Shown: piece by piece, positions 1 to 58,918 of the stretch | How positions within the stretch are numbered: the stretch's first letter is position 1 | Layout of the letters: the number at the start of each line of letters is the position of its first letter | Source: Myxococcota bacterium | Lineage (GTDB): Bacteria > Myxococcota_A > UBA9160 > UBA6930 | Assembly: GCA_965223705.1 (NCBI GenBank) | Contig: OZ245015.1 | Coordinates: forward strand, 2,880,001 to 2,944,000 | Direction of reading: 5' to 3' | Length of the DNA stretch: 64,000 nt | The notes under the pieces: model-generated | Databases searched by the model: none | What the model saw: only the letters and a program-made list of their open reading frames with translations | What the model was told of the DNA's origin: nothing | Position numbers and translations under genes: made by a program

Positions 1-573
1 GCGCCCGCCATTCGCGGCCCGGTCCAGGCGACCGAGGCCGGCGCCGCTCAGGCGGGCCCTCGCCAAGTCGCGAATGGCGCCACCGTCGGGCGGGATAACC
101 TGGCCGCGTTGGGTACGGGGTCATCGGTCCGAGACGGCATCGCCTCGAATCGCGACGTCCTGGGGAGCAAGACCGGCGTTCGCGCACAAGTGAACTGGGC
201 CGTGGGCGACGGAAACCTCCGCGGAACAGGTGGCGATGGCACCGGGCCCGGCGGCATCACCTGGTCGGACTGCATCGCGCGCCCCGAAGTGCGCGCCTAC
301 ATGGAGCGCATCCGCGCGCGCGTGATGGCGCGTTGGTCGCTCCCGCCTTCGACGCGCGGCAACCAATCCGTGAAGCTCCGTTTCACCCTCGACCGCGCGG
401 GGAGTGCCAGCGCCGTCGGCGTGGTTCAGTCCGAGGATCCGCTGCTCGGGCAAAGCGCCCAGGCCGCGCTCCGGTCGGCCTCTCCCTTTGATCACATGCC
501 GGAACGGGTGCGCTGCTTGGCTGGCCAACCGATCTCCGCGACGTTCCGCAATCCCACCGTTGCGAACCGCTAG
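1..573 (+). CDS. TonB/TolA C-terminal domain protein (5' truncated by window edge)
   Basis: Frame is open from base 1. A Gly/Ala-rich linker is followed by YMERIRARVMARWSLP..VKLRFTLDRAG..LLGQSAQAALRSASPF, typical of TonB_2/TolA C-terminal domains. Confidence 0.75.
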   Translation, partial: APAIRGPVQATEAGAAQAGPRQVANGATVGRDNLAALGTGSSVRDGIASNRDVLGSKTGVRAQVNWAVGDGNLRGTGGDGTGPGGITWSDCIARPEVRAYMERIRARVMARWSLPPSTRGNQSVKLRFTLDRAGSASAVGVVQSEDPLLGQSAQAALRSASPFDHMPERVRCLAGQPISATFRNPTVANR

Positions 574-41259: not shown

Positions 41260-42699
41260 TCAGAACGTCGTGGTGTGGGTGTAGGCGCCAGCGTCGAAAT
41301 GCCAAAGGTGCTCTCGCCCCTGGTTGTCTCGCCACAGAATTTCTGCCTTTCCGTCACCATCAAAATCATCGACGGCGAGAATGCTCGCGCGCCGGCTGGT
41401 TGACGGGAGCGGAAGCTGCAGCTGGAATTGGCCACCCGCCAGCCGCCAATAAACCGCAGCGCCACTGCGTGGATTGTGCCAGACGAGATCCCCGGCCCCG
41501 TCACCGGTGATGTCACCAGCCGCAGAGATCTTCCAGCCGATCGTAGACGTCGGCAGGGGCAGTTGGGTTTCAAACGAGCCGTTCGAGAATGTCCAATACA
41601 CCGAGCGACCGCGTGACGAGCTATGCCACACCATCTCGTCGATGCCGTCTCGATTGAGATCTGTCACCGCCTTGACGCGCCATCCCGCCGTGGAACTCGG
41701 GAGCGGCAACTGTTCCAAAAAGGATCCGTTCTGGAAGCGCCAGTAGACGTTCCCTCCGACTCTAGAGGAATGCCAAATCAGCTCTGAAATCGAATCTCCA
41801 TCGAGGTCTCCCGCCCCGGAGATACCCCAGCCAAAGCTGTTGCCCGGGAGAGCGATCGACTCCTGCAATTGCCCACCTTCGAGGATGAGCATTGTCGAGG
41901 CGTGTCTCCTACGGTTGTGCGCGACCAAGTCTGCGTCGCCGTCGCCATCGAAATCGCCTTGCGCCGCGATCTGCCACCCTCGACCGAGTTGCGGAAGCGA
42001 CCTTTCTTCACGGACCCCGTCGCTGTCGAGCAGCCGCAGGGTGACCTGACCGGCCCCCCCAGTACGAAGCACATCCGCGATCCCGTCGCCGTCAAAATCG
42101 TTGCGAGCGTCTCCGTTTCCGCGCAGCGGGGCGGCTTCCTCGACGGGCGGTGCAGGCGCTTCCTCCTCGGCCGGGGCCGGCGGCGACGGCGCGGGCACGT
42201 CCTCCTCAACGGGCGGCGGCGGCGGCGCGGGCGGGTCCGGCTCCGCCGGCGGATTGGCGGGCGGTTGCGTCTCTTCTTCCTCAGCCGGGGGCGGCGGCGC
42301 GGGTGCTTCTTCCTCTGCCGGCGGCGAAGGAGGAGGCGTGACAGGCGGCGAAGGAGGAGGCGTGACAGGCGGCGGAGGAGGAGGCGGCGCGGCCGCAAAG
42401 GTAAAGACGTCTGACGGATCGGAGAGCGGTCCCTCGGCGCCGACCGCGTCGCGTCCTGCAACGCGGATCTGGAAGCTCTCGCCGGGCTGGCCCATCACGG
42501 TGACCGCGGTGCCGGGTACGGCCTGCTCGAAGGTGTAGGCGCCGCCTTCCCGGGAGATATATACGGCGTAGTCGACGACGGGCCCGGAGGCGCTGAACCA
42601 GCGGACTTCAGCGCTCGTTCCCGGGACGGTGATCGCGCTCGCTGCTGATGCGACCATGGCACAGGCGAGGAGCAGGATGAACGCAAGGGATCGGTTCAT
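41260..42699 (-). CDS. Secreted protein: FnIII-like domain, Pro/Glu linker, FG-GAP/VCBS repeats
   Basis: Signal peptide; FQIRVAGRDAVG..GPLS; P/E-rich linker; repeated GD[FLI]xGDGxxD/ELxW. Confidence 0.85.
   Translation of the reverse strand: MNRSLAFILLLACAMVASAASAITVPGTSAEVRWFSASGPVVDYAVYISREGGAYTFEQAVPGTAVTVMGQPGESFQIRVAGRDAVGAEGPLSDPSDVFTFAAAPPPPPPPVTPPPSPPVTPPPSPPAEEEAPAPPPPAEEEETQPPANPPAEPDPPAPPPPPVEEDVPAPSPPAPAEEEAPAPPVEEAAPLRGNGDARNDFDGDGIADVLRTGGAGQVTLRLLDSDGVREERSLPQLGRGWQIAAQGDFDGDGDADLVAHNRRRHASTMLILEGGQLQESIALPGNSFGWGISGAGDLDGDSISELIWHSSRVGGNVYWRFQNGSFLEQLPLPSSTAGWRVKAVTDLNRDGIDEMVWHSSSRGRSVYWTFSNGSFETQLPLPTSTIGWKISAAGDITGDGAGDLVWHNPRSGAAVYWRLAGGQFQLQLPLPSTSRRASILAVDDFDGDGKAEILWRDNQGREHLWHFDAGAYTHTTTF
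42320..42373. repeat. 24-bp tandem repeat in the Pro-rich linker
   Basis: GGCGGCGAAGGAGGAGGCGTGACA twice plus a partial copy; encodes PPVTPPPS. Confidence 0.8.
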
Positions 42700-42935: not shown

Positions 42936-44486
42936 CTAGTCGCCGAAGACCCGGCGCAGGTGTTCGGGCGGAAGATCGTCCGTGACCCAGGAGATCACCA
43001 CGCTGGCCAACAGCGAGGCGAACCCGCCCAGTGTCGCGCAAGCGAACGGGTTCGGTGCTTGGGCCGCCAGCCAGCCCATCACGCCGGAGTCTCCGGTGAT
43101 CCACCCGACCTTGAGAACGATGAACACCGCCGCGCCCGCGAAGAAGCCGGCGATCGCGCCACCGCGGGTGAGCCCACGCCAGAGCACGCCCAGCATGAAC
43201 GGGCCGGACAGTGCTGCCATCATGCCCCCGACCCCCGCCCAGATGAGGAGGGCGACGTTCATCTTTTGAAACGCCCAGGCCATGGCCATCGCGGCGATCA
43301 TCACGACCGCCGTCGCGACGCGACTGATCTGGAGGGCCTTGTGGTCGACGTACGCCGCGCCCTCCTCCCTGTGCCACCGCGGTGCGAGCGAGCAGCGGTA
43401 GATGTCGTTCGCGAAAATTTGCGAGGCCGAAACGGCGAGCCCGTCTGCCGTCGACATCACGGCGGCCAGGACCCCTGCTCCGAGGAGCGCGGCGAGCCAC
43501 GTCGGGAGCAGAGCGATAAAGAGCGCGGGGATCGAATAGTTCGGGTCGAGATCTCCCGTGAAGAGCGCATCACCGAGGACGGCTCGGGCGAGAACGCCGC
43601 CCAAAGTGATGCCCGGAAGGATGAAGCCGAACACGAACGCCAACGACAAAAAGATGCGCCGGCTGCTGCCATCGCGGAGGGCCCAAAGCTTGTTCCCCAC
43701 GTGGGGCAGCATGCCGAGCGGCAAATGGGCCGCGAAGATCGCGAAGACGCCCCACCAGCTGCCCACCAGCGGGTGGCCTTCTCGCAACACCGCCACGTTT
43801 TGTGGATCGAGTTCTTCAAGGCGCGAGACCATTCCGGAGAACCCGCCTTCCACACCGTACCCGACCCAGAACATCCCGATGACGCCGATGGCCAGAACGA
43901 TCATCAAGGCGCCCTGGACACCGTCGGTGAGGATGTCCGCGTGGGCCCCGCCGATCGCGATATAGACGAGCAACACAGCACTCGTGATCACCAGCGCCCA
44001 GAACTTCGGGATGCCGATCATCTGCTCGAACATGACGGTTCCCGCGAGCAGCTGCGCCGCGAGGTAGAAGAGCAGCAGCAACGAGAAGATCGCCACCACG
44101 AGGCGCAGGAACTCCGACTGATAGCGATCGCCCAGGTACTCGGGGACGGACCGGTTTCCGAACACGTGGCCGGCGCGCTGGACGACACGCATACAGAGGA
44201 GAATTCCGGTGTAGACCCCGGCCGGGTAGACGAACGCGTACCAAAGGCCGGAGATCCCGGCGGAATACGCAATCGCCGGGAGCCCGAGGAACGTTCCCCC
44301 GCTGGCGGCCGTCGCGACCAACGCGAAAGACAGAAAAACGGGCCCGTAGCTGCCTCGCGCCGTGGCGAAATCGTCGCCGCTACGGACCCGCCGCATGCCG
44401 ATGATCCCGCACACGACCATGATTGCGATGTACATCAGCAAGAAGACGATGGACCAGGTCTTGAGTGCGGGGTCGAGTTCGGGCAT
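42936..44486 (-). CDS. Sodium:solute symporter family protein
   Basis: DFATARGSYG, SGGTFLGLP, SVPEYLGDRYQS, GGAHADILTDGVQG, AAVMSTADG. Confidence 0.93.
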   Translation of the reverse strand: MPELDPALKTWSIVFLLMYIAIMVVCGIIGMRRVRSGDDFATARGSYGPVFLSFALVATAASGGTFLGLPAIAYSAGISGLWYAFVYPAGVYTGILLCMRVVQRAGHVFGNRSVPEYLGDRYQSEFLRLVVAIFSLLLLFYLAAQLLAGTVMFEQMIGIPKFWALVITSAVLLVYIAIGGAHADILTDGVQGALMIVLAIGVIGMFWVGYGVEGGFSGMVSRLEELDPQNVAVLREGHPLVGSWWGVFAIFAAHLPLGMLPHVGNKLWALRDGSSRRIFLSLAFVFGFILPGITLGGVLARAVLGDALFTGDLDPNYSIPALFIALLPTWLAALLGAGVLAAVMSTADGLAVSASQIFANDIYRCSLAPRWHREEGAAYVDHKALQISRVATAVVMIAAMAMAWAFQKMNVALLIWAGVGGMMAALSGPFMLGVLWRGLTRGGAIAGFFAGAAVFIVLKVGWITGDSGVMGWLAAQAPNPFACATLGGFASLLASVVISWVTDDLPPEHLRRVFGD

Positions 44487-44585: not shown

Positions 44586-45002
44586 GTGAAAGGCCATTTC
44601 GCCGCGCTCGTGGCCGCGCTCGTCGCGCTGGTTGCCCTCGACGCGGGGTGCGTTCAACAAAGCGCACGCCGCCCGCGGATCGACCGCTTCAGCGATGCGC
44701 CGCTCGTTCCCGTGGGTCGATCGGACATCCCGCGCTCGGGCAAGGTCACGTATCGCATCTCCTCGCTCGAGCAGAGCGAGGGCGGGCAAGCATTTCTCGA
44801 TATCGACCTCATGAACGGATCCGCCAGGGGCTTCCGCTCGGCGAACGTGGTTGTCACGTTTCTCGGCCGAGACGGTGCGAGCAAACGCGTGAGACGCGCG
44901 CTGGGGCCTCTGTTCGAAGGCGCCACGGAACGCGTCGTGGTTCGCTCGACCCTCGACTTCGATCTCGAAGACGTGCAGGTCGCCGTTCAGATGACCATGT
45001 AG
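44586..45002 (+). CDS. Small putative lipoprotein (FxLYD-like beta domain)
   Basis: GTG at 44586; hydrophobic stretch then LDAG-C; LMNGS..VVVTFLGRDG..LFEG. Confidence 0.5.
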   Translation: MKGHFAALVAALVALVALDAGCVQQSARRPRIDRFSDAPLVPVGRSDIPRSGKVTYRISSLEQSEGGQAFLDIDLMNGSARGFRSANVVVTFLGRDGASKRVRRALGPLFEGATERVVVRSTLDFDLEDVQVAVQMTM

Positions 45003-45024: not shown

Positions 45025-47232
45025 CTACCCCGGGCAACTGTCCGCGATCTCGGTGAGCTCGGCTCGGACCGGATCGGCGAAAACCCGCCCGCTCGCGAGC
45101 AAAGACGCTGCCACGGCGCAGCCGTCCTGCGCTTTTCCCGGAGCGGCGCGGAGGGTCCGGGCGACGCCGACGCGCGCTTCCGCCCACTGCTCGCTTTCCG
45201 GCGGCACGAGTTGGCTCGCACGGTGCCAGATCAACGTGGCGCGGTCGGGCAGGTCGAGAGATTCAAAGAGTGTCGCCGCGCCGTGAAGGGTTCCGAGCGC
45301 GCGCGGCTCGGTGGACAGCGTCTCGTCGAGGAGCGTCACCGCTCCGTCGATGTCGCCCGCGCGCGAAGACGCCTCGGCTTCACGCAGGGTGAGATCCGCG
45401 ACGAGCTCGACCTCGACGTCGTCAGGACGCTTCGCGCGCAGCGCCGCGAGCAGCTTCGCGTGAACCGCCGGGTTGGGCGCGGCTTCCGGCGGAACGGCGG
45501 CGAAGATCGCCGCGAGCTGCCAGCGATCGCGTTTCGCGCCGGGCCCCGCTTCGAGCATTCGTCGCGCGCGATCTTGTGCGTCCGCGTGCCGCCCGACTCG
45601 CCACAGCGCGACGAGACGCGTGCGGGTCGTCTCGAAATCGTCGCGAAGCGTGAGCAGGGTATCGAGTGCGGGTGTCACCTTCCCCTCCGCGATCTGTTGC
45701 CTCGCACGTGCGAGTCCCAGCTCCTGGGCGTAGGTCTTCTTTGTGGCCGCCGGGATTCCCGCAACAGCGTGCAATGCGCGGGCGAGCTTCTGCGCCGGCG
45801 CGCGGAGGTTGACGCGCTCTTGCAGCGAACGCTCGAGCTCCGACTGCAGCTTGGAAGACAAGAGGAGCGCCTTCTGAAGCTCGACGGCTTCGCCTCCCGC
45901 CTTGTTTCGTGTATCGACGCGCTCGAGGATGCGAATCGCGCGATCGGGGTTGGCGGTCGCCGCCGCGCGGCCGAGCGCCCGGTGGACGGCGACTTCCCCC
46001 GCCTCAGCGCTGTCGGGAGCATCCTTGGCCACCCAGGCCGACGCGTCGGCGACGGCGCGGTTCGCGCCCGCGCCGCCTTCCGCCTGCCAAGATCGCGCCG
46101 CGTCATAGGCCAGGCGCGCGACGTCGGGCCGGAGCGACGACTGCGGATGATCGGTGCGAAAACGCTGACTGGCGGCGTAGGCCTGTGCGAACCGTCCCGC
46201 GCGGTACTCGGCTTCCGCGAGCCGAGCGACCACGACGTCCCGTCGCAACCCGGGCAACGGGCCTCCACGCAACGCCCGGTCGAGGTGCGCGGCCGCGCGC
46301 GATGGTTCGTCCTTTCCGGCGGCGAGGCCCGCTAGAGCGGAACCGACAGCGCCGAGACCGAGTCCGTCCAAGAACGCCGCGTCGAGCCCCGCCGCGGCGA
46401 GGTGCGCGGTGGCCTGGCCGGCGCTCTTGCCTTCCATCAACGCCTTGGCGGTCTCGCTGATCGCCGACGATCGTTTCGCACGGTCTTTGGCACCGAGGAA
46501 CGCCTCGAGTCTCATCAGGAGGAGCTCTTCGTTGCGTGTCCCCTCGGTTTCTTTCAGGACTTCCTCGAGCTTCCCCTCGGCGGCCGCCGTTCGCGCCCGC
46601 TCGACGCGGACACGCTCGTGGAAATCGGGCGGCGCATCGCGGAAGACCTTGCCGAGGCGGTCCAGGGTCGCGCGCGCTTTTGCGGTCTGCCCCAGGCCGC
46701 GCTGCAACGATGCGACCGCGAGCAGCGTCTCGCGACCGACGGCCGGGTCTCGGACGCGAGGCAGTGCGCGACCGAACGCCCGGAGCGCTTGCTGAAAGTA
46801 ACCGCGCTGGCGTGTGCGACTCGCGCCACTGCGCTGCGCAGCGTGCCCCAAGCGAAAGAGCACCCAACCGCGCCAGTAGTCGATCTCGCCCGACAGGTGA
46901 TCCATCTGCAGCCACTCCGAAGAACCGTAGAGGGCATCGAGCGCCGCTTCGTCGTCCGCAATGGCGTTTTCTCTCCGGTCGCGCAGTGAGGTCAGCCCAC
47001 TTTGGGCGCTTTGCAACGCCGCGAGGGCGTCCTCGAGGCGCGCCGCTGGGAGGCCGTCGCCCCGCCCGAGCACCTCCGCCGTGTCGCGAACGACCGCCTT
47101 GAGCCCCGGCAAGTCGCCGGACTGTGCCGCGCGCTTTGCGCGCCCCGCGAGCTCCGTCGCCGCTATACCGGGTGCCGCGAGCACAGCGGTGAGCAAACCG
47201 ACGATCACGAGGTAGCGCGCGAAGAGCAGCAT
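45025..47232 (-). CDS. Large exported TPR-like helical protein
   Basis: Signal peptide; YWRGW, LAEAEYRAGRFAQAY..FRTDHPQS, WAEARVGVARTL. Coupled to the upstream ExbD gene. Confidence 0.7.
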   Translation of the reverse strand: MLLFARYLVIVGLLTAVLAAPGIAATELAGRAKRAAQSGDLPGLKAVVRDTAEVLGRGDGLPAARLEDALAALQSAQSGLTSLRDRRENAIADDEAALDALYGSSEWLQMDHLSGEIDYWRGWVLFRLGHAAQRSGASRTRQRGYFQQALRAFGRALPRVRDPAVGRETLLAVASLQRGLGQTAKARATLDRLGKVFRDAPPDFHERVRVERARTAAAEGKLEEVLKETEGTRNEELLLMRLEAFLGAKDRAKRSSAISETAKALMEGKSAGQATAHLAAAGLDAAFLDGLGLGAVGSALAGLAAGKDEPSRAAAHLDRALRGGPLPGLRRDVVVARLAEAEYRAGRFAQAYAASQRFRTDHPQSSLRPDVARLAYDAARSWQAEGGAGANRAVADASAWVAKDAPDSAEAGEVAVHRALGRAAATANPDRAIRILERVDTRNKAGGEAVELQKALLLSSKLQSELERSLQERVNLRAPAQKLARALHAVAGIPAATKKTYAQELGLARARQQIAEGKVTPALDTLLTLRDDFETTRTRLVALWRVGRHADAQDRARRMLEAGPGAKRDRWQLAAIFAAVPPEAAPNPAVHAKLLAALRAKRPDDVEVELVADLTLREAEASSRAGDIDGAVTLLDETLSTEPRALGTLHGAATLFESLDLPDRATLIWHRASQLVPPESEQWAEARVGVARTLRAAPGKAQDGCAVAASLLASGRVFADPVRAELTEIADSCPG

Positions 47233-47675
47233 TAGAGCACGTCTCCGAGCTCGCCGAGCGTCACGCGCTTGCGTCCCGCCGCGAGCGCCGCGTCGTAGGC
47301 GTCGACGACTTTTGAATACGGCACATCGTCGTCCCCGACAACGACGACGGGGATCGAGCCCGGGAGACCGCGCAAACGCGCGACCAGTTCCTCCGCGGTG
47401 GTGACCGCGGTTCCAGCCGCGAACCAGGCCGGCCCTTGTTCCGTGTTGCGCACAGCCACGCGGTAGGGTTCGAGAAACTGCTCGACCGTCGGAGGTTCCT
47501 TCTCGGGGAGACGGACCTCAAAACGATCTTCCCTCGGGATGAAGCGAGCTGTGAGCACCAGGAACAGGAGGAGAAGAAAGACGACATCGACCAACGGGGT
47601 CAAGCCCGAGGTCGACGCCGCGGACGCGCCGTGGGGCGCGCGCCGAACCTGCTGGCGCCCGCGCAATCTCCTCAT
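47232..47675 (-). CDS. ExbD/TolR family protein
   Basis: GLTPLVDVVFLLLLFLVLT, VRLP, VVGDDDVPYSKVVDAYD. Confidence 0.9.
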   Translation of the reverse strand: MRRLRGRQQVRRAPHGASAASTSGLTPLVDVVFLLLLFLVLTARFIPREDRFEVRLPEKEPPTVEQFLEPYRVAVRNTEQGPAWFAAGTAVTTAEELVARLRGLPGSIPVVVVGDDDVPYSKVVDAYDAALAAGRKRVTLGELGDVL

Positions 47676-48085
47676 CGCGCGCTCCCCGACGTCTCGGGCG
47701 TAACCATGAGGCGAACGTTCGGAACGCCTTCCTCGCGAAGCACCGAGAGCACACGTTTCATCGTTCCGTAGTTCACGCTCCCATCGCCGCGAAGACGTAC
47801 CATCGTCGCGCCCCGCGCCGACAACTCCGAGGCGATGGAATCGAGTCCGGTCGGTTCTCCAGAAAGGTGCAGCGCGCCGCCTCGCGTAACGGTTATGACG
47901 GGCTCGCCGCCCGGACGGTCGGTTTCCTTCGCCTCGGTGGCCTCGGGCAACGCCACTTGGACCAGCTGCTGCTGAATCACTCCCTGTGCCAGTGCGAAAA
48001 ACAGCACGAGCAACATGACGAGGTCGATCAACGGCATGAGGACAGCGCCGAGCCGTCCCCATGCGGCGGAGCTACTTCGCTTCAT
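47672..48085 (-). CDS. ExbD/TolR family protein
   Basis: LMPLIDLVMLLVLFF, VALPEA, LRGDGSVNYGTM. Confidence 0.88.
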   Translation of the reverse strand: MKRSSSAAWGRLGAVLMPLIDLVMLLVLFFALAQGVIQQQLVQVALPEATEAKETDRPGGEPVITVTRGGALHLSGEPTGLDSIASELSARGATMVRLRGDGSVNYGTMKRVLSVLREEGVPNVRLMVTPETSGSAR

Positions 48086-48873
48086 GCCGAAACGCGACGG
48101 CCGCCGTGAGACAGGCTTTCCGGAAGCGCCGCTACTGCGTTCTCCCCGGCTGCGACGCCCGTCGCCTGAACGTGATCCGCCCGGTTGCGCAAGATCGTGT
48201 AGAGCAACAGGATGGGGATCGCGACGGAAAGCCCCATCATGGTGGTGACGAGCGCCTGAAAAATACCTGCGGAGAGTTGGACCGGATCCACCGGGCCCGT
48301 CGATTGAGACAGGGCGGCAAAGGTTTTCACCATCCCGGTCACGGTGCCGAGCAAACCCAGCATCGGCGCAATGGTCGCGATCAAGTTCAAGTACTCGACG
48401 CGGCGTACGACGCCGCTCATCCAACTTTCGGCTGCGTCCGCCATCACGTTGCGCGCTTCGGGTCGGCCGTCTTCCAGGGCTTCAATGCCCGAACGGAGGA
48501 TATGCCCGAGAAACGTCGGGCTCTTCCGACTGGCGGCGAGAGCCGCGGCGGCGTCACCTCCGCGAAGTGCCTCGCCGACCTCGTGCGCGAGCTTCGCCGG
48601 TACCAACGACTTTGCGCGGAGCTCGAAGAAGAACACCGCCGCTAATGCCAGACCGACGATCGAGAGCGCGAGAATCGCGTAGCCTACCGTACCGCCGTAA
48701 CCCAGGACCTCGGCGAAATCGATGTCCGCCTCTTCCGAGGCGCTCGGTGTAGCCGCAGGCTCCGCGAGGACGGGTGCCGAGTCGGGCTCTTGCGCTGAAC
48801 TGATCGACACCGTCGACAACAGCGCGCCGAGCACGGCGAGGATGAGCCAGAAAGGCTTGATGTTGCTTCTCAT
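48082..48873 (-). CDS. MotA/TolQ/ExbB proton channel protein
   Basis: IATIAPMLGLLGTVTGMVKTF, LSAGIFQALVTTMMGLSVAIP; N-terminal signal-like extension. Confidence 0.93.
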   Translation of the reverse strand: MRSNIKPFWLILAVLGALLSTVSISSAQEPDSAPVLAEPAATPSASEEADIDFAEVLGYGGTVGYAILALSIVGLALAAVFFFELRAKSLVPAKLAHEVGEALRGGDAAAALAASRKSPTFLGHILRSGIEALEDGRPEARNVMADAAESWMSGVVRRVEYLNLIATIAPMLGLLGTVTGMVKTFAALSQSTGPVDPVQLSAGIFQALVTTMMGLSVAIPILLLYTILRNRADHVQATGVAAGENAVAALPESLSHGGRRVSA

Positions 48874-49946
48874 TCGAGTCCTCCGAGAAACGGAACCAAC
48901 CAGTCGAGCCACTGCGTTCCGAAAATGGCTACCGCGAGATTGCGGGCAACCTGAGCGGTGCCGCCGAGATTGACGACTTCACCGCCTCCGGCGTTCGCCA
49001 GCTCGGCAAACTGCGGAATGAGTCCGCTCGATTGGTACGCCGGCTCCACGCCGTGCAGCTTTCGCAAGACCTCGGGATTCGAGATCAACGACACGTCGAG
49101 CAGGGTCACGACCCCACCGCGCCGGTGGAACGCTCCGACGCGGTCGATGAGCCGCCCCATCGTCTCGGGATGTGGCGGCGCGTCTCCGACCACGATGACG
49201 ACTTGAACCGCCTGCGAGCGGAACCCGGTCTTCTCGATCGCCGCTTCCATCGCAGAGTCAATCGCTTCAAAAATGTCTCCGCCCCCTTCGGCGTCGAGGG
49301 CGTGAAGGAACTCGCGAAGGCGCGCGTTCCGATACGTCAGGGGCAGGACCTTCGTCACGTAGGCCGAGTCGTAGTCGCGATAGGCCACGACGCCAAACCG
49401 CGTCTTCGGCACGAAGCCGCGAACGACGCGCACGAGCTCGTCGATGCGATCCCGCACTTCCTCGATCACCCAGCCCATGCTCCCCGTCGTGTCGATGGCG
49501 AGTACGACGTCGAGTCCGTGGCGTCGCATCTCGTCGAGCATGTCGTCGAAGCTGCCGAACGCACCGGGGCGGCCCGCGCCGAACGACGGCGCCAGTTGCG
49601 CCACGGCGCTCGGTTGAGACTCGAAGATCTGGGTCGCTTCCGCCGTGATGGGGTCGGGGCGGAACGTCCTCGTCGGAAGGGGACGGACCGTGGTGACTTT
49701 GGGTTTCGGCCTGGGAATCGGCTTGGGTTCCGGTGCGGCCTCGGCCGAGGTCGCGGCTTCGGGGGCCAGCGTCAACGCGGTTTCCGTCTCTTCGGGTGCG
49801 CCGGGCAGCCCGAGCCTGACGCCTCGCATGTACGCGAACAACGCGATGTGAAGGAGCACCGAGAACGCGAGCCCCAGCAGGACCCAACGATTCGTCTGCC
49901 AGGAAGACGGACCCGGCGCGCGCGGCGTCTGCATGGGCTCGCTCAC
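48870..49946 (-). CDS. Membrane-anchored VWA protein with TonB-like SxxxH anchor and Pro-rich linker
   Basis: TM LAFSVLLHIALF; PEPKPIPRPKPK; LDVVLAIDTTGSM (MIDAS), GVVAYRD, GGGDIFE, VGDAPPH. Confidence 0.85.
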   Translation of the reverse strand: MSEPMQTPRAPGPSSWQTNRWVLLGLAFSVLLHIALFAYMRGVRLGLPGAPEETETALTLAPEAATSAEAAPEPKPIPRPKPKVTTVRPLPTRTFRPDPITAEATQIFESQPSAVAQLAPSFGAGRPGAFGSFDDMLDEMRRHGLDVVLAIDTTGSMGWVIEEVRDRIDELVRVVRGFVPKTRFGVVAYRDYDSAYVTKVLPLTYRNARLREFLHALDAEGGGDIFEAIDSAMEAAIEKTGFRSQAVQVVIVVGDAPPHPETMGRLIDRVGAFHRRGGVVTLLDVSLISNPEVLRKLHGVEPAYQSSGLIPQFAELANAGGGEVVNLGGTAQVARNLAVAIFGTQWLDWLVPFLGGLE

Positions 49947-50635
49947 GACGGGACGACGCTTTCGGCACCGCCGCGCCCCGACGCCAGGAGTGCCGCGGAA
50001 AGTTCGCGCTGGCAGTGAACGAGCGTCGCGTGGTGGGACGCTCTCGAAGCCTCACTCGCTGCGGCGGCGATGGCGAGGGCCAGCCCGTAGCGACACTGCG
50101 CGCGCAGGCCCGCCGTCGAGAGGAGCCCATTGCTCCAGGCCTCGAGCGCGATGAGATAGTCGAAGAAATGTTGTCGTGCGAGCAAGTCCACCCGGACGCC
50201 GAGCGCGATATCCCCGGCGGTGGTCGCGGCGCGGAGGACTTCCGCCATGCCGTCGATGCAATGCGCCCAGACCTGGGGGGTGAGCTGGGGATCGCTCTGT
50301 TCCCAAAGCGCTCGCAGAAGACCGCGGCCGTACACGGGATCTTCGGTCTGCTCGTCGATCGCACAATCGAGGATCGCGAACGCCAAATCGACCGGCGGCA
50401 TGTCCGGTAGCGCCTGAATCCGCTCCTCCGTGCGCTCCACCGTCTCGACCAATAGGGCGTGAAGCACTCCGCCCTTCCCGCCGAACAAGTTGTAGGGCGT
50501 CACGAGTCCGACACCGGCTTCGCGCGCCAGGGAGCGCATCGCCAACCCGCCGGGCCCTCCCCTTCGGATGAGCCGTTTCGCCGCGCTCAAGATTCTCCGG
50601 CGCCGCTCGTCTTGCTGCTTCTCTCGCAATCCCAT
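49943..50635 (-). CDS. TetR/AcrR family regulator
   Basis: MGLREKQQDERRRRILSAA..MRSLAREAGVGLVTPYNLFGGK. Confidence 0.93.
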   Translation of the reverse strand: MGLREKQQDERRRRILSAAKRLIRRGGPGGLAMRSLAREAGVGLVTPYNLFGGKGGVLHALLVETVERTEERIQALPDMPPVDLAFAILDCAIDEQTEDPVYGRGLLRALWEQSDPQLTPQVWAHCIDGMAEVLRAATTAGDIALGVRVDLLARQHFFDYLIALEAWSNGLLSTAGLRAQCRYGLALAIAAAASEASRASHHATLVHCQRELSAALLASGRGGAESVVPS

Positions 50636-50666
50636 AACGCGTTATGATTGTATAACGTGTTATGGG
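50631..50666. promoter_or_regulatory. Double-palindrome operator overlapping the tetR start
   Basis: CATAACGCGTTATG (50633-50646) and ATAACGTGTTAT (50652-50663). Confidence 0.75.
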
Positions 50667-50685
50667 ATGGGTGAACGCGTATTCG

Positions 50686-51216
50686 ATGTCAGCGATGAGG
50701 CTCGCCGCTATCGGTGCTGTGTGGCTCGTCATGAGCGCCTGCAGCGGCATCCAGAAGCATGAGGGCGGTTACATCTTCGTCCCCGAGGTTGAAGGCGACG
50801 CCGTCGAGCAGGAAGTCGAATCCCTGATGCGCGCCGAAACCGGAGTGTGGCTGGGAATGCCTCGGGGTATCGCCGAAGACATCCTCAACGATCGTTTTGG
50901 ACTCACGAGCGGCCGACAGCCGAGCTCCGGCGGGATCGAGACGCTCGTCGCCCCGGGTGGGGGCTACGTCTACCTCCTCTACTACAAAGGACCGCCGGGG
51001 AGCGGCAAGATCCTGGTCTGCGGGCTTCAGATGCGCGGCGTCGGCGAAGACCCGCCGCCGCTCATGTCACCCGCCGGCGTTCGGCAACATCTCGGCGGGA
51101 AGAGCTACCGACGCACGGCGGAACGCGTTGTTTCTGTCTCCGATCGCGAGATCTTGTTCCTCGACCGCGAACACTGTCCGGAGCGCGATCCGGGACCGCC
51201 GCGCCGAACCGACTAG
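50686..51216 (+). CDS. Hypothetical lipoprotein
   Basis: MRLAAIGAVWLVMSA-C lipobox-like; divergent from tetR. Start uncertain. Confidence 0.6.
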   Translation: MSAMRLAAIGAVWLVMSACSGIQKHEGGYIFVPEVEGDAVEQEVESLMRAETGVWLGMPRGIAEDILNDRFGLTSGRQPSSGGIETLVAPGGGYVYLLYYKGPPGSGKILVCGLQMRGVGEDPPPLMSPAGVRQHLGGKSYRRTAERVVSVSDREILFLDREHCPERDPGPPRRTD

Positions 51217-52397
51217 AGTCGCGCCTGGGTGGGGCTGAGCGCGCCCGTCCCCTCTTCGTAGCCGCCGTCCTGGTTGTAGATGACGGCCCACGCGGCCATG
51301 ACTCGAACCGGGAGGCTCGTGTCGTCGAGTGCGCCCGCCGCCAGTTCGCGCTCCTCGGCTCGCCCTCGCCAGCCCACGGCCCACAAACTCTGCAACCGCA
51401 GATGCTCCGCCTGCCCTGGCTCGACGCCGCGCGCGAGTGTCTCGCGCGCCTCCATGTCGCGAGCCCATCCCAATGCCTCGATCACCCGGCCGGCGGCGAT
51501 CTCGTCGACGGAGCCGTCGGCGACAACCAGGTTCGCGAGCTCCAGAATGATGTCGCCGCTCGAGCGGCGGAGCGCGCCCGCGGCGATCGATGCCAGTCGC
51601 TCGTCGTTGCCGAGCACCTGCCCGCGCAGGTAGTCCTTCGCTTCTCGGACGCCTTGGCGTGCGCGGCTGGCAGAAGCCGCGATGCGAACCCGCGGTGAGG
51701 GATCTCGTGCGAGCTTCTCGAGTGCATCCCGCGACCATTCCGTCGGCTCAAGCGCCAGGCAGGCTGCCGCGATCTCTCGCTGGAGCTCTCCACTGGCTCT
51801 GAGCAGAGGCTCGACCATTGCGGGAATCTTCGCGCTGCCCAGCGAAGAGGCCGCGTAGATCGCGTAGGCGCGCATCCGCGGATCGTCCAGCTTCGAGATG
51901 TACTCCTCCACGACAGGGAGTAGCTCCGGGTTCCTCGAGTTCGCCGCCGCGTCCAAGGCCGCAACCTGCATGTTCGGTTGACCGGTGCGGATCGCCGACT
52001 CGATCAACGCCACGGCGTCCGTTCTCGGCGTAATGCGAAGACCTTCGAGGACCGAGCGCGTGAGCTCGGGGCTCTGCGTCGAATGGCGTTCGAACCACTG
52101 GATGGCACGCGGGCCTCGCACGGTGAGCACCGCGCCAACCGCGGCTTGCCGTGCGAGCTCCGCGCCGCTGGTGAGCGCATCCAGCAACACCTCTTCGCCT
52201 TCGACAGAGCCGCCGCTCAAGAGGATGCCTGCGGCGACGACGCGGTCGTAGCGGTCGACGTCTTCGAGGGCCAACGCATCTCGGGCAACCTGGAGCGCGC
52301 GCTCGCGCAGCTCGGCGTCCGGTCCTTGGCACCCCGTACCCAACGAGACAAGCAGCGAAAGAGCGGCAGAGAGAAGGAGGGGCTGGCAACGTCGCAT
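51213..52397 (-). CDS. HEAT-repeat lipoprotein
   Basis: LGTG-C lipobox; repeats such as LARDPSPRVRIAASA and LDDTSLPVRVMAAWA. Confidence 0.8.
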   Translation of the reverse strand: MRRCQPLLLSAALSLLVSLGTGCQGPDAELRERALQVARDALALEDVDRYDRVVAAGILLSGGSVEGEEVLLDALTSGAELARQAAVGAVLTVRGPRAIQWFERHSTQSPELTRSVLEGLRITPRTDAVALIESAIRTGQPNMQVAALDAAANSRNPELLPVVEEYISKLDDPRMRAYAIYAASSLGSAKIPAMVEPLLRASGELQREIAAACLALEPTEWSRDALEKLARDPSPRVRIAASASRARQGVREAKDYLRGQVLGNDERLASIAAGALRRSSGDIILELANLVVADGSVDEIAAGRVIEALGWARDMEARETLARGVEPGQAEHLRLQSLWAVGWRGRAEERELAAGALDDTSLPVRVMAAWAVIYNQDGGYEEGTGALSPTQARL

Positions 52398-52491: not shown

Positions 52492-52530
52492 AAAAAGGAA
52501 GGGGCTGGGCGGCACCTGCCACCCAGCCCC
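52492..52530 (-). terminator. Rho-independent terminator after the DUF1302-like gene
   Basis: Minus strand GGGGCTGGGTGGC..GCCGCCCAGCCCC followed by TTCCTTTTT. Confidence 0.75.
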
Positions 52531-52566
52531 TATCCAGGATGCTTCCTTCGCTAGGCGAAAGACTGC

Positions 52567-54786
52567 TTAGAACGAGTACCGAATCCGGAAGAACACCTCG
52601 TCCTGGTTCCGGATGTTGCTCAGGCCTTCCTGGATGGCGCCTCGCACGTTCGTGGGCGTGCCATCTCCAAGCGGCAGAAATGTACCATCCGCTTGAGGAT
52701 CGACCGTGAACCCCGTGAAAGGTCCGATGGCATGGCTGTCTTCTTGGGGGGTCCCCCAGATGACGTTCACGCCGCCGAGAATGCTCCAGTTGTTGGTGAG
52801 CAGGTATTGCAGCTGAAAACCCGATACCCAAGCCCCCGAGGCCTCCTCCCAAACGATGAAGCCCTGTGGCGTCAATCGATCGCGCATGTACTGGCCCTGG
52901 ATGAAGAGCGTCAGGATCCAGTTGTGCCGGTCGATCGGCATGCCGCTCTGGTTGTTCCCCTCATGGTCCTTCCAGTACGTGTGGAAGATCTGGCTCGAAA
53001 TAAAGAACGTCCGGTTCGGGTTCAAGAACTTGATGAACGTCGGTCGATCCATACCTAACGCGAACTGAATGAGATCCGACTCGTCGAACCAGTTCAGCTT
53101 GTTCGTATTCGTGATCGGTACGTCGTTACTCCAAGACGACTCGAGGCGGAACACGATGCCGGTGAAGTCATCGAAGTAGTCGACGGCGAGCCCCAGCGTG
53201 TTCACCTTGTTGTAGTCGAGGAAGATCGAGCCACCCGGGGTCAGGAAACCGCCGAAGGCCGAATAGAACGCCTGCGGATCGTTGTGGGCGTTGTTCGCCA
53301 GCGCCACCACGGCCGGGTTGGTCGAGTTTTGCGCCAGGGCCACGACCTCTTCCGGCGAGCCGACGAAGGCCGGGATGTTGCCCAGGGCCGCCGAGCAGCC
53401 CGCTGCGGCGGCCGCCGCGGCGGCGCGGTCGAACCACAGACAGTCGTTCGTCGGAATCCCGGTAGCGACGTTCTGGCTCAGTGTGATCGTGTTCCAGCGG
53501 ACCTCAGGCGTATCCCAGGTGCCCCAGTGGTTGGTGAGCGCGAAACGGATCTTCCAGATCCTCGCCTCGAAGCGCACCGCGATCTCGGTGTTGTCGAACT
53601 TCCAGGCCGGCAGGTTCTCACCGCCCGCCAGGCCCGCCGGTGTGCCAAAGCCCGAAGGCAACACACCGGAGCCGAAACCGTCCGGATCGGCTCCACCACA
53701 TGCGATCTGGCCGTCACCGGCCGTGGCCGGATTGAAGTCCGTACCGCCCGGAGCGCAGGGTTCCACGCTGAAGTAGGTATTGAACAGCGCGAAGGTTCCG
53801 ATCTGGCGACCGAAGAAATCGAATGCCCAGCCGTGATACGGCGCGCCGCCGCCTACCCGCTGGAAGCGGTCGAAGTTCCAGATCAACTGGATCGCGGTAT
53901 CGGTCAGCGGCCCGATCGAACCCGGGCGCCACTGCGCCGAGATCATCCACTGCGGAATCCGGATATCTTCGAAGGAATCGAAGAAGAAGTGCTGTCCAAA
54001 GTCCACCGGGTTGATGACGTCCTGGAGGCGGAAAAAGTCCGTCTTTCCCCACACGATCTGCTGCTTGCCCGCGCGGATCCAGACGTCGCCGATGCGCAGG
54101 TCCATGTATAGCTCGCGCACCGGGTACAGGCGTCCGTTCGAGTCCGTTGCCCCGAAGGCGACGTCGAGATGGTCGTCGTCGACGTCCTGACACTTGGGAC
54201 AATTAAGATTTCGATCGCTCAGAGGAAACGTGAGCGGGAAGTTTGCGTCTTCAAGCACGGCAAACTCTTCGAAGAAGCTCGGTCCCTCGACCCCGTGCAG
54301 GACGATCTTCTCGAGACCGCCTGTGGCTGTGATCGCAGGCTGCCCGATGGCACGACCGGCAGCGAAGTCGAGACCACCGAAGGCAACCGGGTCGCTACCG
54401 TAGGAGAGGCGGCCCGAGTCAGCGGGCGTATTGTCGGCGTCCCGGCCCACGTGGCCGTTCGAAATATCCTCACCGTAGTACTGCGCCCAGTCGAACTGAG
54501 GTCGCAACACTGTCGTGATTGCGATCTCGTCGAACAGCCCGACTTCTTCCCAGGTGATGGTCGCCTCTACCTGGAGCCGTGTGATCAGCTGATTGAGGTA
54601 GGTGGAGCCACCATCTTCAAACGTGTGAATGCGAGCTTCCGCGTCTGCGAAGCCGGCGACCTCGAGTTCGCCACCGAGAACTTCCCAGGTGTAACCCGCG
54701 CGCGCCTGTTGGCTGGCGCCCAGAGCGACGGCCATGACGGCGGCGAACAAAAATGTCGCGCCTCGACCCATGAGTTGAACGAGCAT
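52567..54786 (-). CDS. DUF1302-like outer-membrane protein
   Basis: Signal peptide; RELYMD..IRAGKQQIVWGKTDFFRLQDVINPVDF..EDIRIPQWM; C-terminus RNQDEVFFRIRYSF. Confidence 0.8.
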   Translation of the reverse strand: MLVQLMGRGATFLFAAVMAVALGASQQARAGYTWEVLGGELEVAGFADAEARIHTFEDGGSTYLNQLITRLQVEATITWEEVGLFDEIAITTVLRPQFDWAQYYGEDISNGHVGRDADNTPADSGRLSYGSDPVAFGGLDFAAGRAIGQPAITATGGLEKIVLHGVEGPSFFEEFAVLEDANFPLTFPLSDRNLNCPKCQDVDDDHLDVAFGATDSNGRLYPVRELYMDLRIGDVWIRAGKQQIVWGKTDFFRLQDVINPVDFGQHFFFDSFEDIRIPQWMISAQWRPGSIGPLTDTAIQLIWNFDRFQRVGGGAPYHGWAFDFFGRQIGTFALFNTYFSVEPCAPGGTDFNPATAGDGQIACGGADPDGFGSGVLPSGFGTPAGLAGGENLPAWKFDNTEIAVRFEARIWKIRFALTNHWGTWDTPEVRWNTITLSQNVATGIPTNDCLWFDRAAAAAAAAGCSAALGNIPAFVGSPEEVVALAQNSTNPAVVALANNAHNDPQAFYSAFGGFLTPGGSIFLDYNKVNTLGLAVDYFDDFTGIVFRLESSWSNDVPITNTNKLNWFDESDLIQFALGMDRPTFIKFLNPNRTFFISSQIFHTYWKDHEGNNQSGMPIDRHNWILTLFIQGQYMRDRLTPQGFIVWEEASGAWVSGFQLQYLLTNNWSILGGVNVIWGTPQEDSHAIGPFTGFTVDPQADGTFLPLGDGTPTNVRGAIQEGLSNIRNQDEVFFRIRYSF

Positions 54787-54913
54787 CAAATCCCCTCCTC
54801 GGTCCGGAACCACTGAGGGGGGCACCCCCGGGGTCCGGCCAGCTCGCTGATTAAAGCATTCCCCCGCAAGGATTTAAAGCATCTTTTGCGGGTTTCTTCG
54901 TCTTTCGGGGCGT

Positions 54914-57595: not shown

Positions 57596-58918
57596 CTAAG
57601 CGTTGTCGTCGTTCAGACGAATCTGGCAGCGTTCCCAGCCGGAATTGCCTTTGCGAAACACGCAGCTACCGCGCCCACCGAGAGCGAGCAGCGTGTTGTC
57701 TTCCAATACGAGGATGGGCTTGAGCCACGAATAGAGCTCGAGCGCGGAACGGTCGACGAGCTTCCACCCCTCGCCCTCGACCTCTCCGAGCAACCCGACG
57801 GCGCCGACGATCAGCGGCGACGAGTTCGCGAGGAGGTGCGTCCCGAAGATGCCCGCCGTGCCCGCAGGTTGCGGCCTCGAGGACCACGTGACGCCGCGGT
57901 CGTCGCTGCGTTGGTTGGCACCGGCCGCTCCGACGAGAACGATGGTGTCGCCCTTCCCCGTGGAATCGATCCAATACGGGAGGTCGGGGTCTCGCGCGGA
58001 GAGCGATGCGCCGCGGCGTGCCCACGTAGCGCCGTCATCTTCGCTCTGAAGAATGAGTCCGAACTCACCCGCGGCCGTGATGAGGTCTCCCTGGAAGACC
58101 ATCGTGCTGATCGTGAAGTCGCCGGCCTGGAACGCCGCGCCGGGCCGGAAGTCGAAGGTGATCGTCGGCGCGGGCTCGGCGTCGAGCTCGTTGACGATCT
58201 CGATGACGCCGTCCTCGCTGACGATGAAATCCTTGTCGAGTTCGGCCGGGCGTCCGTTGACGTTGCCGGCGAGTACGATGGACTCGCGGAGAATGTTCGC
58301 GACGCCGGTGAACCAAACACCCGGGTTCGTGTTCGGGAAGGGCAGCGGGGGTTGGTTCACGGTATCCGGGGCGGCGTCCTGAAAGGTCTTTCCACCGTCG
58401 CGCGACACCGCGAGGATGCCTCGCCCGCCAGCGGCCCAGATCGACCTGATGTTGCCCGATGAATCGCGCCGCACGCCCATGGTGAGGACGGCGTCGTTCC
58501 CGATGTTCTGCACCTGAGAGAGCGTGCCGTTTTCGAAGCGGAGAATATTGCCCGACGCACTCGCGACCAGCGCCGAGCCATCGGGCAAGGCGACGACGTC
58601 CATCAGGTCTTCGGTGACGTCCGTCTCGACGAGCTCGGCTTTCGAGACTTCCGACCCGTTGAACGTGATGAGGGCGACCATGCCGAACTCGCCGACGCCC
58701 AAGATCTGGTCGCTTCCAACGAGCTGAACCGCAGCGATCACATCGTTCGAAAACTGCAGCCGTCGGTCCCACGAAGGCGTCGGTGCCGCCTCTTGGGCGA
58801 ACGACGCAGACGCGACGAGGCTAGAGCTCATGCAGAGGAGGAGAAGCAGGACGAGTTCCTTGCTTCTCGGTACCCGGCGAACCGGGACCGATACGAGGGG
58901 CGCGTGTCGTTGTGTCAT
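57596..58918 (-). CDS. YCF48/BNR-repeat beta-propeller protein
   Basis: Asp boxes SRDGGKTF, SEDDGATW, SDDRGVTW; repeated VGEFG/AGEFG motifs. Confidence 0.8.
   Translation of the reverse strand: MTQRHAPLVSVPVRRVPRSKELVLLLLLCMSSSLVASASFAQEAAPTPSWDRRLQFSNDVIAAVQLVGSDQILGVGEFGMVALITFNGSEVSKAELVETDVTEDLMDVVALPDGSALVASASGNILRFENGTLSQVQNIGNDAVLTMGVRRDSSGNIRSIWAAGGRGILAVSRDGGKTFQDAAPDTVNQPPLPFPNTNPGVWFTGVANILRESIVLAGNVNGRPAELDKDFIVSEDGVIEIVNELDAEPAPTITFDFRPGAAFQAGDFTISTMVFQGDLITAAGEFGLILQSEDDGATWARRGASLSARDPDLPYWIDSTGKGDTIVLVGAAGANQRSDDRGVTWSSRPQPAGTAGIFGTHLLANSSPLIVGAVGLLGEVEGEGWKLVDRSALELYSWLKPILVLEDNTLLALGGRGSCVFRKGNSGWERCQIRLNDDNA

Follow-up and report, generated by a model that had tools for sequence, protein, structure and literature searches.

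What does a proton motor pull on when its TonB-like transducer ends in a vWA domain? A six-gene operon (tetR-vWA-exbB-exbD1-exbD2-TPR-like, all on the minus strand) raises this question in a 64,000-nucleotide stretch of a Myxococcota genome (contig OZ245015.1, positions 2,880,001 to 2,944,000), which we call the window and in whose coordinates features are given. The vWA protein is very probably a motor-coupled, TonB-like force transducer. As to its target, we favour, with confidence a little short of even, a motor that pulls via the vWA protein and a TPR-like adaptor on a DUF1302/DUF1329/Ycf48/RND module for hydrophobic compounds, here called Ame-type after AmeABCD of Castellaniella defragrans. 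The genes of the operon are:

49943..50635, minus strand: tetR, 230 aa, TetR-family regulator (Pfam TetR_N, E 9.4e-07)
48870..49946, minus strand: vWA gene for the predicted transducer, 358 aa, GTG start; membrane anchor, disordered linker and vWA head (Pfam VWA, VWA_2 and VWA_4)
48082..48873, minus strand: exbB, 263 aa counted from the ATG overlapping the vWA stop, ExbB/TolQ-type (Pfam MotA_ExbB, E 5.3e-27)
47672..48085, minus strand: exbD1, 137 aa, ExbD/TolR-type subunit 1 (Pfam ExbD, E 5.4e-17)
47232..47675, minus strand: exbD2, 147 aa, ExbD/TolR-type subunit 2 (Pfam ExbD, E 6e-16)
45025..47232, minus strand: TPR-like gene, 735 aa, signal-peptide-like start (Pfam TPR_6, marginal)

These positions and the Pfam matches over cut-off confirm the six genes with overlapping stop and start codons described in an initial annotation of this DNA. 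Of the five junctions, four have 4-nt overlaps and the other a 1-nt overlap, and the GC content at third codon positions is 0.74-0.81. The span given initially holds for the genes, and its end, 50666, falls past the tetR start in the operator region.

Proton conduction in such motors is carried out by an ExbB pentamer with an ExbD pair; ExbB is the docking place of an S-x3-H helix, which is followed by a short strand for binding to the ExbD pair. The vWA protein has candidates for both elements, followed by its head:

49827..49886, minus strand: membrane helix, residues 21-40, carrying S29-x3-H33
49764..49781, minus strand: alternating hydrophobic stretch, D-box/motor-box-like, residues 56-61, predicted ExbD-binding strand
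48876..49550, minus strand: vWA head, residues 133-357, with predicted metal site D152, T154, S156, D191, D224, E227 and D255

The sequence SVLLH (S29-H33) lies inside the single hydrophobic segment of the protein, whose best 19-residue window begins at residue 22. In the AlphaFold model, residues 15-42 form a helix (predicted local distance difference test, pLDDT, about 93 over residues 21-40), residues 48-128 have low pLDDT, and residues 133-357 make up a confident vWA domain. Conservation of SxxxH had been proposed initially as a check, and in an alignment of 43 sequences picked from the top protein hits and loci (A3) His33 is invariant (43/43) and Ser29 is kept in 40/43; in a wider alignment (A1) the His is found in 32/35. 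An S/A-x3-H helix is present in 51 of the 53 family loci with an intact N-terminus, compared to 0/34 secreted vWA controls under a distance filter that disfavours the controls and 1/37 unfiltered. A cleaved signal peptide, named initially as evidence to the contrary, is not indicated by motif counts, as 4/43 vWA proteins have an AxA cleavage motif past the helix and 0/43 a lipobox. The N-terminus is thus predicted to be a single membrane helix rather than a cleaved signal. Beyond the His, position +7 of the S-H-L-S motif is Met here and Leu in 19/43 (18 gapped), and position +11 is Ser in 4/43 (A3), i.e., as far as the alignment tells, the first half of S-H-L-S is kept in the family and the last Ser is not.

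The alternating hydrophobic pattern, scored permissively and lying in a low-confidence region of the single-chain model, occurs in 37/43 proteins and begins 20-25 residues past the His in 30 of these 37 (D-box motif as defined in PMC10907165). The linker has 90 residues including 16 Pro; across the family its length is 102-164 residues (median 119) with a median Pro fraction of 0.14. Hydrophobicity, model and alignment agree with the one N-terminal membrane segment with SVLLH and the Pro/Lys linker PEPKPIPRPKPK (residues 72-83) of the initial annotation. Pfam matched only vWA families in this protein, with no TonB_C or TolA C-terminal domain, and the vWA domain is the sole globular domain of the model (AlphaFold, Foldseek).

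Both ExbD1 and ExbD2 retain the membrane Asp (alignment A4), as had been read from the letters. In proteobacteria-like relatives of the operon, this Asp is replaced by Asn in the second ExbD of 6/6 aligned loci (L046, L048, L049, L052, L054, L056), where the predicted ExbD heterodimer would hold one proton-binding site. The N-terminus of ExbB has a signal-peptide-like segment and an acidic spacer ahead of the motor domain, likewise in L001 and L174. In the host genome (G000; 4.56 Mb, 95% complete), ExbD is matched six times and TonB-dependent receptors five times; its Ton-like and Tol-Pal-like loci are both separate from this operon, and exbD1-exbD2 is its sole adjacent ExbD pair. The closest protein with a name belongs to a Myxococcales metagenome-assembled genome. 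Among the 14 window genes scanned with Pfam there is no TonB_C or TonB-dependent receptor match, which upholds their reported absence from the operon; both are present elsewhere in the genome.

The architecture itself is already in print. Williams-Jones et al. (2025; PMC12204202) predicted vWA force transducers computationally, left their function open and raised gliding; statements on this and the other cited papers apply to the parts of them that were available. Common to both are a His-bearing membrane helix, a putative motor-box-like strand, a disordered linker of about 100 residues and a vWA head, as well as the neighbouring genes: one tolQ-like gene, two tolR-like genes that differ from each other and a TPR gene. 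The vWA protein of the operon is a member of the class as described in that text, assigned by architecture and synteny alone. Many class members carry the full S-H-L-S motif. The host order is not among the phyla named in the available text, and the vWA gene comes first here; further differences are the linkage to DUF1302, Ycf48 and RND genes, an integrin-beta-type metal site, motorless vWA-TPR paralogues and a local TetR. The available text and one supplementary file do not mention the DUF1302/Ycf48/RND linkage, and a term search of that supplement gave neither DUF1302, DUF1329 nor Myxococc. Hence, of the machine driven by proton-motive force with a metal-dependent VWA head that was proposed initially, the motor-coupled transducer stands and its architecture was published in 2025, while the Ame-type linkage, the integrin-beta-like head and the dedicated TPR-like family are what we add. 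The trans-pore-helix vWA family of the same paper has an Asp-bearing helix, no His motif and no exbD neighbours; the membrane helix studied here contains no Asp, the His is present and two exbD genes adjoin. With TonB-ExbB-ExbD and TolA-TolQ-TolR, the operon shares the motor families, the S-x3-H anchor, a putative D-box-like strand and a Pro-containing linker, but its cluster lacks a TonB/TolA C-terminal domain, receptor, TolB and Pal and has two different ExbDs.

One TolQ-like and two TolR-like subunits are also found in Agl-Glt, whose AglR5QS layout of a pentamer and a heterodimer matches the operon (PMC11761067). A gliding or adhesion motor of this type, suggested by PMC12204202 and by the initial AglRQS analogy, would suit the integrin-like head as well. 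However, the analogy holds for the one-ExbB/two-ExbD layout and becomes weak for gliding: GltG carries an FHA domain along with a head of TonB type, and a search for it in the host genome gave six matches, all partial (confined to positions 2-184 of 650) and all below cut-off (other Glt genes were not searched). In addition, the vWA head is anchored at the inner membrane, the family scan found no gliding family match in the operon proteins, and the neighbours are transport and catabolic genes. We therefore consider a gliding or adhesion motor very improbable. The gene context instead points toward an envelope module that is widespread and has been connected with terpenes, fatty esters, aromatics and steroids.

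The head was recognized as a vWA fold by Pfam, Foldseek and VIA. Its DTTGS motif spans residues 152-156, and D152, T154, S156, D191, E227 and D255 are each conserved in 43/43 sequences of A3, while position 224 is Asp in 36, Ser in 4 and Asn in 3. The top structural matches in VIA are integrin beta-6 and beta-8 I domains (Z 17.6, root-mean-square deviation 2.6, 185 aligned), with other vWA domains 1-2 Z behind. A 63-sequence head profile, which includes non-transducer relatives, matches integrin beta-8 (E 1.2e-07) and pairs DTTGS with DVSAS, YRD with YVD, GGGD-x-x-E with GNIDTPE, and GD with TD. According to the residue roles in beta-3 integrin (PMC3792891), the equivalent of E227 is the Glu shared by MIDAS (metal ion-dependent adhesion site) and the synergistic metal ion-binding site (SyMBS), and those of D191 and D224 are SyMBS-type. 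The site is thus a DxTxS with Glu227 as predicted distal ligand, where most vWA domains carry Thr; D224 was considered as the equivalent of the MIDAS Thr and dropped, as the integrin alignment puts E227 there. The DTTGS motif of the initial annotation is therefore intact, but the site appears to be of integrin-beta type rather than a canonical MIDAS, and its metal binding is predicted from these residues. Compared to the integrin beta-I domain (PMC3792891), the head shares the fold and the aligned MIDAS/SyMBS-type residues, but has Thr in the second motif position and lacks the specificity-loop insert, an alpha subunit and the acidic pair of the site adjacent to MIDAS (ADMIDAS) after DxTxS, where M-G-W follows DTTGS. 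The integrin-beta-type site is common to secreted vWA relatives and hence not special to transducers.

The last gene of the operon provides the candidate for what this head grips, with one segment of particular interest:

46936..46956, minus strand: residues 93-99 of the TPR-like protein, the acidic tip of a hairpin and candidate metal ligand for the vWA head

The model of the TPR-like protein is an all-helical solenoid (pLDDT 89.9) for which Foldseek returned generic solenoids only, with TM-scores < 0.3 and no close solved relative. TPR-like genes beside vWA genes in three branches form one family (hhalign probability 99-100), which counts 108 clusters at E<=1e-30, and the TPR-like gene adjoins vWA in 8/9 motorless loci. 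Judged from gene content, the family is dedicated to the vWA protein and stays even without motor genes. The TPR-like protein is probably the ligand of the vWA head; it had been suggested initially as grip partner, a part for which co-occurrence with vWA is the one line of evidence. Hairpin positions 95 and 99 are acidic in 20/20 locus-derived TPR-like proteins, and position 303 is acidic in 75 of 82 full-length cluster representatives. As ligand of the vWA metal, the hairpin may serve as a lead only. Looking up the clusters of 10 partner proteins yielded a single organism name, a Gammaproteobacteria metagenome-assembled genome.

The best clue to function, which the initial annotation overlooked, is in our judgement the DUF1302-RND-Ycf48 group adjoining the operon:

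52567..54825, minus strand: DUF1302 gene, predicted outer-membrane barrel, AmeA-like (Pfam DUF1302, E 7.4e-17); same place in the orthologous loci L001, L043, L173 and L174
54914..57583, minus strand: RND/MMPL transporter gene, AmeD-like (Pfam MMPL, E 1.5e-32)
57596..58918, minus strand: Ycf48/BNR-repeat gene, AmeC-like (Pfam PSII_BNR, E 8.5e-13)
51213..52397, minus strand: HEAT-repeat gene with lipoprotein-like start (Pfam HEAT_2, E 1.6e-17), kept in the four orthologous loci
50662..51216, plus strand: divergent lipoprotein-like gene, no Pfam match; orthologues 31-51% identical in the four loci
52500..52531, minus strand: terminator-like hairpin after DUF1302, 14-pair stem and T run

The best NCBIfam match of the RND gene is HAE3 (TIGR00921; E 2.1e-46, under its cut-off). 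The synteny in other genomes that had been put forward as a check is seen in the four orthologous loci and in loci of the wider family. These were collected from a metagenome scan (79 loci from the best 80 of 527 confirmed matches) and a single-protein scan of a species-genome collection (3 loci), and the family is present in 9/193 genomes of the order. In total, 94 loci were grouped by a vWA tree (44 rows), with truncated or distant rows assigned by score and motif. Ame-type genes (DUF1302, DUF1329, MMPL/RND, Ycf48) were counted within 10 kb using profiles made from available members, which had mostly been checked with Pfam; their seeds came from the window-type, motorless and proteobacteria-like groups, and distant homologues elsewhere may be missed. 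Among 60 relatives, the weak vWA matches (25, at E 1e-18 or weaker) were mostly secreted vWA proteins and were rejected as family members; L041 and L042, from such matches, were added to the control set.

Ame-type genes were found near 5/6 window-type, 8/9 motorless and 11/17 proteobacteria-like loci, and near 0/37 secreted vWA control loci. When the count is limited to loci whose flank reaches 5 kb or more, the linkage is 4/4, 7/7 and 6/6 in these branches (17/17), compared to 0/8 in a sister branch, 1/4 among remaining loci and 0/22 in controls. At distances of up to 4 kb, motor genes accompany vWA in 6/6 window-type loci, in 11/17 proteobacteria-like loci (5/5 of those with 2.5 kb on both sides) and in 0/37 controls. 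The three linked branches show three different gene orders. The window-type order is Ycf48, RND, DUF1302, HEAT, divergent lipoprotein, vWA, exbB, exbD, exbD and TPR-like, and the proteobacteria-like order, on one strand, is RND, Ycf48, DUF1302, exbB, exbD, exbD, vWA and TPR-like, often with DUF1329. The motor cassette is co-oriented with DUF1302 and comes after it in L046, L051 and L053, DUF1329 follows the TPR-like gene in L046, L049 and L051 (Pfam), and all four Ame families (DUF1302, DUF1329, Ycf48/BNR, RND) are present in L046, L051, G192 and G490. In the host genome, neither of the two vWA paralogues is more than 7 kb away from a DUF1302 gene, and the zone so defined makes up 1.4% of the chromosome.

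Several results weigh against a mechanical link between motor and module. Ame-type genes are near 0/12 sister-branch loci and 1/13 remaining loci (a single Ycf48-like neighbour), and as vWA, TPR-like and motor genes are all retained in the sister branch, the machine exists without the module. The surveyed loci are kin and not independent. Motor genes are missing from the surroundings of nine loci, and in G059 (98% complete) the only ExbD matches are three single ones. Within the window cluster there is no DUF1329 gene, with 13 matches elsewhere in a host genome that is rich in these families (4 DUF1302 and 13 DUF1329 matches, many MMPL/RND and Ycf48-like genes). Given the hairpin between them, the barrel genes and motor genes are likely separate transcripts in the host. 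At the level of the TPR-like protein, the candidate hairpin is acidic in 73 (position 93), 62 (95) and 59 (99) of the 82 full-length cluster representatives. The published cassettes, discussed below, consist of four genes only, with no ExbB, ExbD, vWA or TPR genes in the available texts (PMC6394551; 10.1101/072470; 10.1101/2020.07.04.188060; PMC13499233), and AmeABCD has been interpreted as an exporter (PMC6394551).

The sister branch, the terminator-like hairpin and the four-gene cassettes would all suit a vWA/TPR/motor set that serves the envelope as a general force machine and has a target of its own, adjacent to Ame-type genes through shared regulation or inheritance rather than mechanics. 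Against this stand the linkage in three branches with different orders, the position of the cassette between DUF1302 and DUF1329 in L046 and L051, and the survival of the linkage where motor genes are gone. On balance, we find a general machine doubtful. In favour of a motor acting on the Ame-type module are the conservation of the anchor, the adjacency of motor and TPR-like genes and the Ame-type linkage in three branches; the link between motor and module is drawn from gene neighbourhood.

AmeABCD of C. defragrans (DUF1302, DUF1329, Ycf48-like, HAE3 RND) aids monoterpene tolerance (PMC6394551), and it shares with the operon's surroundings the DUF1302, Ycf48/BNR and HAE3-like RND genes, as do other DUF1302/DUF1329/BNR/RND cassettes. 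The four cassette genes are cofit, were proposed to export a wall component, and have members in aromatic and steroid clusters (10.1101/072470); in P. putida, cassette genes matter on fatty esters (10.1101/2020.07.04.188060). DUF1302 is predicted to be an 18-strand barrel in a predicted complex with DUF1329 (PMC13499233). Among the papers listed in a literature search outside subscription journals, none joined DUF1302/DUF1329 to a vWA motor. AmeB and AmeC have been proposed as assembly-type proteins (PMC6394551), which would agree with a motor and solenoid that build, place or dismantle the RND-carrier-barrel complex instead of powering each transport cycle. A 735-aa all-helical solenoid suits a scaffold, and HEAT-repeat and small lipoprotein-like genes accompany the window-type operon. 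However, the anchor His and putative D-box-like strand match TonB and TolA, which cycle force repeatedly, and no chaperone family was matched in the family scans (Pfam, NCBIfam), making such an assembly or remodelling factor a rather improbable explanation.

If the motor does act on the Ame-type module, ExbB and an ExbD1-ExbD2 heterodimer would form the proton-driven motor and the membrane-anchored vWA protein its force transducer. The head would bind an acidic residue of the periplasmic TPR-like protein via its integrin-beta-type metal site, the 93-99 hairpin being the first candidate, and the TPR-like protein would hand the pull to the DUF1302 barrel or to a LolA-like DUF1329 carrier, such that the barrel opens or cargo is unloaded. 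The predicted contact of GltG with GltD, leading from a transducer head to a periplasmic scaffold and an outer-membrane complex (PMC11761067), is a precedent for such a chain. Uptake of scarce lipophilic substrates would tentatively be preferred over export. In its most specific form, the DUF1302 barrel would be a powered outer-membrane transporter that the motor opens or unloads through an integrin-beta-like head gripping the TPR-like adaptor, not a TonB box, which we regard as unlikely. If true, outer-membrane transport would have a powered route apart from TonB-dependent receptors, and vWA transducers would have a first function. Two orphan systems, the vWA transducers and the Ame-type module, would gain concrete handles in His33, Glu227, the acidic hairpin and shared DUF1302 phenotypes.

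The second vWA gene of the host genome (C1:1499743-1500867; L005, L037) has no motor genes, lies 6.5 kb from another DUF1302 gene and faces a second DUF1302-Ycf48-RND cluster. Directly upstream of it, at G000:C1:1497600-1498881, are an extracytoplasmic function sigma-like frame and a zf-HC2/RskA anti-sigma gene. A second TPR-like gene stands alone, apart from the second vWA gene and with no motor genes, at C1:1916682-1918907 (L127, L142); the pair is adjacent in G059, G192, G490, G520, G438 and G439. A stand-alone exbB-exbD with a divergent TonB/TolA-like gene is located at G000:C1:2877985-2880500, reaching window positions 1-500, and its ExbB groups with the ExbBs of sister-branch vWA operons in the tree (support 99/97). 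Motorless vWA-TPR pairs may borrow this exbBD at C1:2.878 Mb, though it has its own TonB/TolA-like gene.

Expression of the operon in the host is likely set by the TetR protein, which has its own operator; we propose this for the host genome alone.

50633..50664, no strand: two tandem 14-bp palindromes, 18 bp apart, likely TetR operator pair

The palindromes overlap the tetR start, the first ATG of the divergent gene and a weak sigma-70-like match, such matches being at chance level (1 found, 1.4 expected). Exact matches to the 12-bp palindrome core, two central bases free, occur at two places on contig C1. Related motifs are seen by eye upstream of 6/11 TetR homologues, which together with the operator over the tetR start fits autoregulation. 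A wider TetR regulon was rejected, as the genome has three other near matches, fewer than the 13 that shuffled palindromes gave on average. Between the lipoprotein and vWA genes, tetR is absent in 4/4 orthologous loci (L001, L043, L173, L174) and the operator has no match in the same four intervals; the tetR query also had no match in the same-genus genomes G001 and G002 (87% and 75% complete). TetR control, initially taken to be part of the system, is thus not supported as a family trait, and tetR is best read as a local insertion, present at this position in the host genome only. The KstR match of the TetR protein is far under cut-off.

Other arrangements were observed in the sister branch, where the operons L065, L066, L075, L077 and L086 read exbB-exbD-vWA-TPR-like followed by a second exbB-exbD and carry the metal motif variant DATDS. 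In L068:387-4438, one exbB and four exbD genes precede vWA. When plasmids were searched with a proteobacteria-like member, all 14 vWA matches were partial, with less than 80% covered in each, and no named cultured carrier was found. About 2.3 kb downstream of the operon, the window encodes a secreted protein with fibronectin-III, a Pro-rich linker and integrin-alpha-type FG-GAP repeats (41260-42699); none was seen by eye in the open reading frame lists of orthologous loci, and no search aimed at it was made. Closer to the operon, on its 3' side, are a sodium:solute symporter gene (42936-44486, minus strand) and a small lipoprotein-like gene of no Pfam family (44586-45002, plus strand), both of which are kept in L043 and L174.

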